Made by a program: the position numbers and the translations under genes. This document shows, piece after piece, positions 4,150 to 40,484 of a DNA stretch of 41,671 nt. The notes beneath the pieces were generated by a model, which saw nothing but the letters and a program-made list of their open reading frames with translations, was not told the DNA's origin and did not search any database. The stretch's first letter is position 1. Each line of letters begins with the position of its first letter. Origin of the DNA: a virus (lineage: Duplodnaviria; Heunggongvirae; Uroviricota; Caudoviricetes); IMG/VR virus record IMGVR_UViG_3300037391_000121; one strand, 5' to 3'.

Positions 4150-4176
4150 CCAAAAACACGATCTCGATGGTAGAAT
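4146..4176 (+). promoter_or_regulatory. phage promoter, CTA(G/T)C(C/T)-N19-TAnnAT class
   Basis: CTAGCC 4146-4151, GG then TAGAAT 4171-4176. Confidence 0.65.
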
Positions 4177-19927: not shown

Positions 19928-20100
19928 ACCTCGTTATAAAGCACGGCGAAGCATTCATGCACCTTGGTGACAAGGCACAGTTCTTTTCCGATCCTATTCC
20001 ATCCGACATCACGGCAAAGGAACTGTATGAACGGTTGTCGGACTTGCAGGAAGCCGTTGAGTACGCAAAGGCTCAGGTCAGGCTGGATATTGCCCACTGA
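19924..20100 (+). CDS. small hypothetical protein (58 aa)
   Basis: read by eye; ATGA and TGATG coupling. Confidence 0.6.
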   Translation: MNLVIKHGEAFMHLGDKAQFFSDPIPSDITAKELYERLSDLQEAVEYAKAQVRLDIAH

Positions 20101-20327
20101 TGGATTACATGATTTCATATCGGAACGAGCAGGGCGTCCTGAGCCGGATTCTTGCTGCTCTGACTGCGAGGAGCATCGACGTGAATAGCATCTTCGGAAC
20201 TTCACGTCTTGATGCCCGAGTGGGGCACATGTGCCACGTGCAGTTTGCGGCAACCGAGAAGCAAGAGCAGCAACTCAAACGGGCGTGGAACGCCATTATA
20301 GGCGTCACGGAAGTGAAGAAGGTATGA
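20100..20327 (+). CDS. stand-alone ACT-domain protein (IlvM/IlvN-like)
   Basis: RNEQGVLSRILAALTARSIDV matches the ACT signature N..GVL.RI...F..RG.NI; 75 aa. Confidence 0.7.
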   Translation: MDYMISYRNEQGVLSRILAALTARSIDVNSIFGTSRLDARVGHMCHVQFAATEKQEQQLKRAWNAIIGVTEVKKV

Positions 20328-23155: not shown

Positions 23156-23186
23156 CTAGCTGTTTTCTGACTTCCCATGGTATTAT
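23156..23186 (+). promoter_or_regulatory. promoter of tRNA-Ser cluster leader
   Basis: CTAGCT-N19-TATTAT with extended TGG; shares CATGGTAnTATATAGAAG with 38719-38736. Confidence 0.8.
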
Positions 23187-23228: not shown

Positions 23229-23303
23229 ATGATCGTTATCAGCATATCATCGTTATCGTCTAGTAGCTCCTCACGGGGCGACGGCATCGGTGTGTGCTTG
23301 TAA
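23229..23303 (+). CDS. Ser-rich attenuator leader peptide (24 aa, MIVISISSLSSSSSSRGDGIGVCL)
   Basis: 9 Ser codons using all six Ser triplets plus ATA and TTA, between a promoter and a terminator. Confidence 0.8.
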   Translation: MIVISISSLSSSSSSRGDGIGVCL

Positions 23304-23342
23304 GTATCTGAAAACAAGCAGATTAGATTCACCGAGCAGCCG
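23282..23342 (+). promoter_or_regulatory. antiterminator hairpin of leader 1
   Basis: TGCTTGT/ACAAGCA, TCGGTG/CACCGA and CGGC/GCCG; the last pairing takes the left arm of the terminator. Confidence 0.7.
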
Positions 23343-23370
23343 CCAAAACTAGGGCGGCTTTTGTGTTTTT
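23338..23370 (+). terminator. intrinsic terminator (attenuator) before tRNA-Ser genes
   Basis: AGCCGCC-aaaactag-GGCGGCT followed by TTTGTGTTTTT. Confidence 0.85.
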
Positions 23371-23386
23371 GTACGCAAGTTAACAG

Positions 23387-23478
23387 GGTGAGTTGGGCGA
23401 GTGGCTGATGCCGCAGGTTTGCTAAACCTGAGTGCCTCGAAAGGGGCACCGTGGGTTCGAATCCCACACTCACCGCCA
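23387..23478 (+). tRNA. tRNA-Ser(GCT)
   Basis: GGTGAGT/ACTCACC acceptor, CAGGT-TTGCTAA-ACCTG, long V arm, G73, CCA. Confidence 0.95.
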
Positions 23479-23516
23479 TTTTGAGAAGTACGCGGATGGA
23501 TTAGCAACGTCCGTTT

Positions 23517-23606
23517 GGTGAGTTGGGAGAGCGGCTGAATCCGCCACGTTGGAAGCGTGGAGCACCCGCAAGGGTGCCGTGAGTTCGAATCTCACACTCA
23601 CCGCCA
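23517..23606 (+). tRNA. tRNA-Ser(GGA)
   Basis: CCACG-TTGGAAG-CGTGG, long V arm, G73, CCA. Confidence 0.95.
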
Positions 23607-23611
23607 GTTCT

Positions 23612-23705
23612 GGTGGGCTTGGTACATGGGCAAGTCCGCTCGTCTTGAAAACGAGTACGGGGCAGAGATGCTCCGTTGGGAGTTCGACTCTCCCGTCCAC
23701 CGCCA
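23612..23705 (+). tRNA. tRNA-Ser(TGA)
   Basis: CTCGT-CTTGAAA-ACGAG, long V arm, G73, CCA. Confidence 0.93.
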
Positions 23706-23709
23706 GTTT

Positions 23710-23804
23710 GGTGAGGTTGGTACATTGGCAAGTCCGCTCGCCTCGAAAGCGAGTCGCGGGGCTAACCGCCTCGCGTGCAGGTTCAACTCCTGTCCTCACC
23801 GCCA
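23710..23804 (+). tRNA. tRNA-Ser(CGA)
   Basis: CTCGC-CTCGAAA-GCGAG, long V arm, G73, CCA. Confidence 0.93.
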
Positions 23805-23900
23805 GTTTGACTCACGTGCCTAATGTGTGCCGATGTTTGGCCTCGTGACCCGCGAGGGATATGAGAAGCAGAAGTCAAAGTTTTCGTGGTATTATTGGGT

Positions 23901-24209
23901 ATGAAGTCTTACGAACCATGCGTCGAAGACGCCACGGCCCATATCCACGTTGATTGGAAGACACACGAGAGCACGGGGAAATTTGCCCCGTACCCGAAAA
24001 TATTTTGTAGTGTGTGCCCGCCGTCAACGACAGCGGAAAGTGAAGAGGAGTACCGCAAGTACGTGGCATACGAGAAGCGAGAAGCTTTGAAGTACGCTAC
24101 GCGGAGACCGAGCCAATCGCTTCGTCTTCGGCTGTACCGTCACCGCATTTTGATTATGTGCGGATTTCTGGTCGCAGCGTATTGCGTACTCCATTGGATT
24201 TTGCGGTAG
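23901..24209 (+). CDS. hypothetical protein with C-terminal TM
   Basis: ATG 5 nt after TGGTATTAT (leaderless-type). Confidence 0.7.
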   Translation: MKSYEPCVEDATAHIHVDWKTHESTGKFAPYPKIFCSVCPPSTTAESEEEYRKYVAYEKREALKYATRRPSQSLRLRLYRHRILIMCGFLVAAYCVLHWILR

Positions 24210-24211
24210 AC

Positions 24212-24289
24212 GCCCGAGTGATGCAACTGGCAGACATTTCCCACTTAAAACGGGAATTTTTGGGAGTTCGAATCTCCTCTCGGGCACCA
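24212..24289 (+). tRNA. tRNA-Leu(TAA), short variable loop
   Basis: GCCCGAG/CTCGGGC, loop CTTAAAA, T arm GGGAG-TTCGAAT-CTCCT, A73, CCA. Confidence 0.85.
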
Positions 24290-24294
24290 AGTTT

Positions 24295-24388
24295 AGAGGG
24301 TAGCATTGGTGTGCGGGTGGGCCTTATAAACCTGCAATCGCGGCTGATTACCGTACTCGGACGGGTTCGATTCCCGTACCCTCTACCA
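24295..24388 (+). tRNA. atypical tRNA with TAT anticodon (nominal Ile), long V arm, minimal D arm
   Basis: AGAGGGT/ACCCTCT, loop CTTATAA, 25-nt variable region, T arm, A73, CCA. Confidence 0.7.
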
Positions 24389-24418
24389 TATTTCCCCGCC
24401 CCGTGGTATTATCCTAGT

Positions 24419-33255: not shown

Positions 33256-33428
33256 ACTTCGGACACGGAGAAGGATGCATCTGCCGCGAGTGCCATCGCG
33301 TTCGCCATCTGCTGGCTCAGTGTGAGGACGCTATCCGTGGCGCGAACCGAGCAATCAACACACTCGGCAGGTATCAGACCGACCGCCTCGTTGAGCAGTT
33401 GGAACGGTCTCTGGGAAGGAAACTCTGA
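33252..33428 (+). CDS. small hypothetical protein
   Basis: MNFGHGEGCICRECH...; coupled both sides. Confidence 0.55.
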   Translation: MNFGHGEGCICRECHRVRHLLAQCEDAIRGANRAINTLGRYQTDRLVEQLERSLGRKL

Positions 33429-38748: not shown

Positions 38749-38871
38749 ATGACTCTGAAAAACGCCAATTCGACCGTAGCGACAGCCCATAAGGGCGTCG
38801 GCGGCAAGCGCCAGCGGAATAATCGCTGGTTCGGCGAGGGTCTGTCCTCGGTAGGAGTGGTCGGAATCTAA
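38749..38871 (+). CDS. attenuator leader peptide (40 aa, MTLKNANSTVATAHKGVGGKRQRNNRWFGEGLSSVGVVGI)
   Basis: TGAGGA SD; run AAG CGC CAG CGG AAT AAT CGC TGG at 38806-38829 matches downstream anticodons. Confidence 0.8.
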   Translation: MTLKNANSTVATAHKGVGGKRQRNNRWFGEGLSSVGVVGI

Positions 38872-40026: not shown

Positions 40027-40113
40027 GCAGGTGTGTCGGCAAATGGACGCCACGGGCGCTACGAACGCCCAGCCCTTCGGGGAATGCAGGTTCGAGTCCT
40101 GTCACCTGTTCCA
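40027..40113 (+). tRNA. atypical tRNA with ACG anticodon (nominal Arg), long V arm
   Basis: GCAGGTG/CACCTGT, GGGCG-CTACGAA-CGCCC, V arm CCC-TTCG-GGG, U73, CCA. Confidence 0.8.
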
Positions 40114-40398: not shown

Positions 40399-40484
40399 TG
40401 GGATGTAGAGCGTAATGGTAGCGTGCACGACTGTTAATCGTGTGGCGAAAGCCCTTGTAGGTTCGAGTCCTACCGTCCCAGCCA
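40399..40484 (+). tRNA. atypical tRNA with GTT anticodon (nominal Asn), long V arm
   Basis: TGGGATG/CGTCCCA, CACGA-CTGTTAA-TCGTG, V arm GGC-GAAA-GCC, G73, CCA. Confidence 0.8.

Follow-up and report, generated by a model that had tools for sequence, protein, structure and literature searches.

Control codons of a candidate phage attenuator match individual tRNA genes of the module downstream

Does a leader peptide with a run of serine codons, located ahead of four tRNA-Ser genes, also monitor two rare-codon tRNAs that are encoded farther downstream? The question was raised by a stretch of 41,671 nucleotides (referred to here as the window) that is part of a large uncultured soil phage with many short ORFs on one strand. 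Its genes include an NAD-dependent ligase, RlaP, and Thg1, along with two tRNA arrays; for this phage, the modules read were those inside the window. An earlier note had proposed that the only two codons breaking the serine run, ATA and TTA, correspond to the next two tRNAs and that the operon extends to include them.

A serine leader with two rare codons

The leader peptide ORF (23229 to 23303, plus strand, as for all module features below) has 24 codons, including all six serine codons plus ATA and TTA. The serine run extends from codon 5 (AGC) to codon 15 (TCA) and contains nine serine codons of all six types; ATA (23244 to 23246) and TTA (23253 to 23255) are indeed its sole non-serine codons. 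Both were also rightly described as rare: among the 10,828 codons of the window's genes, TTA (27) and ATA (36) are used less often than any other sense codon (TTA accounts for 27 of 849 Leu codons, or 3%), and the chance of finding both within 11 to 15 codons at these rates is 0.001 to 0.002. Downstream, the four tRNA-Ser genes (GCT, GGA, TGA, and CGA; 23387 to 23804) are followed, in the order given by the earlier note, by a tRNA-Leu(UAA) gene (24212 to 24289; short variable loop, A73) and a gene with a TAT anticodon (24295 to 24388). The control codons, which lie upstream of the antiterminator, are cognate to the products of the array: the six types of Ser codon to the four Ser tRNAs, ATA to a probable Ile(UAU), and TTA to Leu(UAA). 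For the three codons that precede the serine run (ATC, GTT, and ATC), the array has no tRNA, and other start-proximal leader codons (ATC, GTT, CGC, and AAC) have no match in it either.

Homologous loci were drawn from metagenomes and viral contigs, using the 102-amino-acid (aa) ORF described below and DNA patterns that were anchored on the end of the serine run and the terminator and that did not demand ATA or TTA. We obtained 15 distinct Ser leaders from about seven lineages (between-lineage identity, 51 to 70%), one of them from a complete 463-kb phage (G002). Four loci (L115, L142, L144, and L150) stop short of the array end. Promoter-pattern and ORF searches of viral contigs gave no match, and a Leu-leader pattern search returned the known contig only. 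Cultured phages had nothing in common with the window module except tRNA bodies. The single match in a bacterial genome had no tRNA behind it, and thus no host-chromosome copy was found. The leader ORF appears to be under selection for translation; all 15 homologous leaders have an in-frame ATG, and close homologs differ in length by whole codons.

A putative leader promoter (23156 to 23186) combines an extended -10 element, TGGTATTAT (23178 to 23186), with a CTAGC box that precedes it by 22 nt. The identical box, spacing, and -10 also occur at 4168, 13089, 15115, and 38721 in the window, and the leader -10 was found in the homologous leaders. An intrinsic terminator with a 7-bp stem (23338 to 23359) and a U-rich tail (ending at 23369) stands between the leader and the first tRNA gene and is present in every homolog. 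Constrained folding predicted an antiterminator helix (23282 to 23342) that takes the first bases of the terminator 5' arm. With a ribosome placed at ATA or TTA of the window leader, the first four bases of this arm were paired upstream with a probability of 0.90 to 1.0; with a ribosome at the stop codon, the first three bases were sequestered with a probability of only 0.06 to 0.22. For L115 and L143, the arm was predicted to be partly free in ribosome-free RNA and to be sequestered by a stall at ATA. The leader ORF would also fold on itself into a protector hairpin (predicted, -25.7 kcal/mol in leader-only RNA), so that the predicted equilibrium folds comprise mutually exclusive protector, antiterminator, and terminator structures. 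In the full-length RNA, the terminator dominates at equilibrium in most folds; switching would therefore rest on kinetics, as expected of a kinetic switch.

The two rare codons differ in their place within these folds. ATA belongs to the core of the protector strand and is predicted to pair with TGT at 23293 to 23295 (probability, 0.93 to 1.0 in leader-only RNA; near 1 in 11 of 15 leaders). In most leaders, replacing it with ATC or ATT would cost 1.5 to 4.3 kcal/mol, and ACA would stabilize the stem by 1.9 kcal/mol, yet ACA was never found. On these models, RNA pairing may be part of the reason why ATA is retained. The window's TTA is unpaired, and changing it to TCA alters the folding energy by 0.0; TTA is nevertheless kept in all seven close leaders, though unpaired or neutral in most.

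Codons and tRNA genes across relatives

Conservation of the two codons in homologous leaders, on which the earlier note had partly staked its proposal, was borne out: ATA was present in all 15 Ser leaders and TTA in 14. TTA is found at several positions, preceding ATA in L115 and L165, following it by two to four codons in most leaders, standing at the end of the serine run in L143, and occurring twice in L150, which amounts to at least three separate placements. All 15 Leu codons of the Ser-leader control regions are TTA, and the rare codons CTA, AGA, and AGG are absent from these regions in the 15 leaders.

The presence of TTA co-varies with that of the Leu(UAA) gene. The sole Ser leader without TTA is that of L012, where the array runs Ser(GCU), UAU tRNA, and three Ser tRNAs; no Leu(UAA) was found in the 13 kb that follow or in the remaining tRNAs read on this 69-kb contig, which is only 30% complete. 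Its sister leader in L143 is 76% identical and has TTA at the place of the TCA in L012, and only L143 carries Leu(UAA), 6 nt behind the fourth Ser tRNA. Four extra Tyr/Leu modules were fetched as a test of the match, bringing the Leu/Tyr modules to five. TTA and Leu(UAA) were both absent from four of these and both present in the fifth (L359). Between the sister leaders L356 and L359, CTG in the former is replaced by TTA at the same position in the latter, and Leu(UAA) occurs only in the L359 array.

The complete phage G002 has six arrays, each headed by its own leader (i.e., Ser; Trp/His/Arg/Asn/Gln/Lys; Val/Gly/Ala/Asp/Glu; Tyr/Leu; Ile/Thr/Gln; and Pro/Met/Phe); for the Pro/Met/Phe module, the leader ORF alone was identified, and no terminator. 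Its Tyr/Leu leader contains CTA, CTG, CTC, TTG, and CTT, with no TTA, ahead of Leu tRNAs with UAG, CAG, GAG, and CAA anticodons and none with UAA. The Ile/Thr/Gln leader contains ATT, with no ATA, and the array carries Ile(GAU). Among the G002 arrays read, the only ATA and TTA sit in the Ser leader, and the only Leu(UAA) and UAU tRNA sit in the Ser array.

Over 17 modules, each of the two codon/tRNA pairs was scored as both present in six, both absent in 11, and discordant in none. The corresponding Fisher values (8e-5 for the 17 modules; 0.005 when confined to Ser and Leu modules) exaggerate the significance because the modules are related; the independent TTA swaps number two, both as predicted. 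We therefore regard the match of TTA to Leu(UAA) as well supported by sequence comparison. ATA is invariant and so offers no gain/loss contrast inside the Ser family. Every complete locus has the UAU tRNA in its Ser array, and this tRNA is absent from all other arrays read; at the place of the ATA of Ser leaders, GTT or CTG is found in the paralogous Leu leaders. The match of ATA to Ile(UAU) is likely, confounded as it is by the RNA structure. The suggestion that the leader monitors both tRNAs gains support from these comparisons, in which TTA is lost with Leu(UAA) in L012 and present with it in L359.

Other leaders were noted in the course of these comparisons. In G002, the Tyr/Leu leader (L311) and the Ser leader (L010) have a common M-N-R start and a Gly-Gly-Val tail; they look paralogous, which suggests that new modules form when an existing one is duplicated and its control codons are rewritten. 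A second leader in the window (38749 to 38871), with His, Lys, Arg, Gln, Asn, and Trp codons, is followed by a terminator and the second tRNA array. It contains neither ATA nor TTA, and homologous leaders exist in G001, G002, and G003.

The UAU tRNA and the reach of the transcript

The gene at 24295 to 24388 (anticodon, 24325 to 24327) was missed by ARAGORN and by Rfam at the gathering score, and its match to the tRNA-Sec model was weak (31.6 bits). It is a real tRNA, however, as judged from an alignment of nine homologs with 98% of the cells paired and 40 two-sided changes. The D stem has 4 bp and a tetraloop, which is replaced by a 5-nt loop in three homologs; the structure also has a long extra arm and A73. 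A branch of the 7/5 type is indicated by covariation (pair 70-87 kept in nine of nine homologs, with six two-sided changes), whereas the pair expected for an 8/4 branch (8-87) is kept in two of nine; on this basis, an 8/4 allo-tRNA reading was ruled out. A73 and the UAU anticodon in a 7-nt loop are invariant in the alignment, as for tRNA-Ile(UAU) and in place of the G73 or U73 discriminator of allo-tRNAs, most of which have Ser identity. The extra arm (24340 to 24354) bears the loop CUGAUUA, followed by a variable linker of normal length (5 to 6 nt). This loop resembles the anticodon loop of an ordinary tRNA-Ile(GAU), and its GAU-A is invariant in the nine homologs. A pattern that required the loop retrieved at least 76 further viral UAU tRNAs that have the same extra arm and whose D arms differ widely. 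A literature search, with most subscription papers outside its coverage, returned nothing relevant on a UAU tRNA with a GAU arm.

Allo-tRNA(UAU) species are known from Acidobacteria and soil metagenomes (Mukai et al., PMC5389517). The UAU tRNA shares with them its anticodon, the D tetraloop, the long extra arm, and the weak tRNA-Sec match (PMC5389517), and differs in its 7/5 branch by covariation where allo-tRNAs have 8/4 or 9/3, in A73, and in the conserved GAU loop on the extra arm. It also lies in a codon-matched phage array, whereas allo-tRNA(UAU) genes lie beside toxin-antitoxin genes (PMC5389517). In orthologous phage proteins, ATA aligned with Ile at 28, Leu at 12, Val at 10, and Ser at 1 of 67 sites, and TTA aligned with Leu at 35 and Ser at 1 of 47; a reassignment of ATA and TTA to serine was ruled out by these mostly Ile and Leu alignments. 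The UAU tRNA is probably an Ile tRNA for AUA. Its body is of the D-tetraloop type in the window lineage, L010, L143, and L165 and has an ordinary D arm in L012, L159, and L184. That the gene stays behind an ATA-bearing leader though its body has been exchanged between phages supports a working AUA decoder.

Unusual tRNAs were also seen elsewhere. The window carries Arg(ACG) (40027 to 40113) and Asn(GTT) (40399 to 40484) tRNAs with long variable arms beside ordinary copies. Genes resembling tRNAs with a CUA (amber) anticodon occur in G002 (three, at about 238.7 to 239.1 kb; L174) and G001 (one, at 33317 to 33394), clustered with other odd tRNAs and with no obvious leader. Between the second and third Ser tRNAs of L143, L159, and L165 lies a conserved noncoding element of about 130 nt with a T-loop-like hairpin. 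Upstream of the module, the window encodes a stand-alone 75-aa ACT-domain protein with an amino-acid-binding fold (20100 to 20327; weak matches to ACT_AHAS_ss and ACT), which is conserved in L036.

Whether a transcript started at the leader would reach the last two tRNAs depends on the 407-nt gap between the fourth Ser tRNA and Leu(UAA), which contains no intrinsic terminator in the window or in seven close loci. The gap opens with a conserved structured element of about 75 nt (23809 to 23880) that is not terminator-like (seven homologs, six predicted pairs with two-sided changes), exists in two sequence variants with compensatory changes, and has no Rfam match. The earlier note had also reported a -10 element at 23890 to 23895 that could drive the two tRNAs independently. 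TATTAT is present there and, with TG at 23887 to 23888, belongs to an extended -10 (23887 to 23895), a probable leaderless promoter that has no CTAGC box and lies 6 nt before the ATG of the next ORF in seven of eight close loci. It resembles other -10 elements after tRNA genes of the window's phage. The ORF that it precedes (23901 to 24209; 102 aa, hydrophobic C terminus) has eight homologs and no Pfam family. A further extended -10 (24404 to 24412), before the following ORF, probably marks the end of the module.

The relatives show how variable this interval is. In L143, L159, and L184, Leu(UAA) and the UAU tRNA adjoin the Ser quartet by 3 to 6 nt, with no ORF or promoter between; this short distance argues that both are part of the attenuated transcript there. 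In L010 and L165, Ser4 and Leu(UAA) are separated by 0.9 to 1.3 kb of ORFs, one of them for a PTH2-family peptidyl-tRNA hydrolase, and weak terminator-like hairpins are present between the two tRNAs in L010. The last 26 aa of the 102-aa ORF match (46%) a 31-aa ORF that directly precedes Leu(UAA) in L010. In distant relatives, such a peptidyl-tRNA hydrolase gene (6616 to 6870 in L010, with similar ORFs in L012, L143, L150, and L165) lies inside or just after the Ser module; the family was assigned by a scan of the L010 ORF. The Leu(UAA) body itself varies among relatives, with short and long variable-arm forms, while its anticodon and place are constant; the replacement of bodies in place in the window lineage points to continued selection on position. 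We consider cotranscription from the leader to 24388 probable in the window's phage. Read-through has to be inferred here, since the conserved internal -10 can drive the ORF and both tRNAs separately, and its conservation makes dual control likely (i.e., attenuator read-through plus the ORF's own promoter).

A probable switch for individual tRNA species

Codons and anticodons match, this match co-varies from phage to phage, and three alternative RNA structures are predicted. From these observations we conclude that the leader is, with good probability, a multivalent ribosome-mediated transcription attenuator that serves a module of six tRNAs (four for Ser plus Leu[UAA] and Ile[UAU]) and whose control codons are chosen by isoacceptor. 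Without a ribosome, the leader ORF would fold on itself as the protector and the terminator would form. A ribosome that reaches the stop codon would cover the 5' strand of the antiterminator, and transcription would end near 23360. If decoding of ATA, TTA, or a Ser codon is slow, the ribosome would instead mask the protector strand and allow the antiterminator to form, whereupon the polymerase would pass the Ser tRNAs and, meeting no further terminator, continue to 24388. The phage tRNAs would then speed up translation of the control codons and close a negative feedback loop. In the window lineage, Leu(UAA) and Ile(UAU) probably have a second source that bypasses the attenuator, namely, the inserted ORF with its own leaderless promoter.

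This arrangement may be compared with the multivalent leader-peptide attenuators of enterobacterial amino-acid operons (ilvGMEDA, thr, ilvBN, and leu), for which isoacceptor-specific sensing was argued from biased synonymous-codon choice (PMC1183508). The phage leader resembles the ilv and thr systems in its short translated leader, in control codons for more than one amino acid with a biased synonymous choice, and in its protector, antiterminator, and terminator alternatives, which here are predicted folds (PMC1183508). It differs from them in that it gates tRNA genes and a hypothetical ORF rather than biosynthetic enzymes or synthetases and in that single codons track single isoacceptor genes across phages. 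The product of the phage module itself decodes the control codons, so that feedback would be direct, unlike in the ilv and thr attenuators. At Escherichia coli pheST, too, a translation component is controlled by leader-peptide attenuation that responds to one aminoacyl-tRNA, as proposed for the phage leader; there, the target is a host synthetase, one amino acid is sensed, and no tRNA genes are involved. T-box riboswitches likewise report a specific tRNA via a codon through a terminator/antiterminator choice, and they bind uncharged tRNA directly and need no translation (PMC4052509). An Rfam scan of the window matched tRNAs only, with no T box; the phage leader thus differs in giving no match to the stem I/specifier loop and antiterminator bulge. 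Our literature search, with most subscription papers outside its coverage, found no paper on leader-peptide attenuation of tRNA genes.

Three other explanations were weighed against the attenuator. The codon/tRNA match could be real but ancestral, if the promoter of the inserted ORF took over Leu(UAA) and Ile(UAU), the attenuated transcript ended or was processed after the Ser tRNAs, and ATA and TTA now affected the Ser genes only. Such a takeover fits the extended -10 with an ATG at +6 in most close loci, the structured element after the fourth Ser tRNA, which could be a processing or pause site, and the ORFs that part the two tRNA groups in L010 and L165. We judge it unlikely in view of the terminator-free gap, the retention of TTA in seven of seven close leaders where pairing mostly does not require it, and the exchange of Leu(UAA) bodies in place, which implies that the position is still selected. 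Alternatively, the two codons might not be sensors at all: ATA could be structural in the protector stem, both could be fixed slow-codon brakes on basal read-through, and the two tRNAs could stand with the Ser tRNAs on other grounds, for instance because long-armed tRNAs are processed together. The near-certain ATA-UGU pairing in most leaders, the rarity of both codons, and the fact that TTA arises from TCA by one transition would agree with this. It seems quite unlikely, because it leaves unexplained why a Leu/Tyr leader has TTA just where the array has Leu(UAA) and lacks it where the gene is absent, why the better-pairing ACA is never used, why GTT or CTG stands at the place of ATA in paralogous Leu leaders, and why CTA, AGA, and AGG never occur in Ser control regions.

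The idea that the UAU and UAA tRNAs carry serine, as allo-tRNA-like missense readers, so that the leader is effectively a pure serine run, draws on allo-tRNAs with UAA and GAG anticodons that put Ser into proteins in E. coli and on UAU being the commonest allo-tRNA anticodon (PMC5389517), together with the D tetraloop, long extra arm, and weak tRNA-Sec match of the UAU gene. We regard it as highly improbable, since both tRNAs have A73 rather than G73 or U73, the UAU gene is 7/5 rather than 8/4, the window's Leu(UAA) has no long arm, and ATA and TTA align with Ser once each in orthologous proteins. Six Ser-type allo-tRNA(UAU) species were inactive in E. coli (PMC5389517), a point that was counted against the attenuator explanation.

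Under the attenuator reading, a single codon would be a weak sensor of amino-acid shortage and a good sensor of the loss or scarcity of one tRNA species. Since ATA and TTA follow the two rare-codon tRNAs across phages, the switch probably monitors tRNAs species by species in addition to amino acids. In the abstracts of two papers (PMC10264068, PMC11555353), phage tRNAs are described as a counter to tRNA-depleting host defences, which offers a reason to sense the loss of a single species. Those abstracts deal with what phage tRNAs do, whereas the phage leader would be a switch that makes tRNAs on demand (PMC10264068, PMC11555353). More tentatively, and with a little less than even confidence, we suggest that these phages may audit the host tRNA pool isoacceptor by isoacceptor. 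The test genes of the arrays would hold at least one codon for nearly every tRNA, one rare codon would suffice, the codon would be rewritten when a tRNA gene moves, and the signal would be tRNA loss (e.g., by a host tRNA-cutting defence) more than starvation.

Codon compensation and the countering of tRNA-depleting defences are the contending answers to the question of why phages carry tRNAs. The two natural swaps described here move the codon/tRNA match from the level of the amino acid to that of the single isoacceptor. A switch whose codons name its tRNAs would show which shortages the phage expects and would make the question testable with a short reporter.
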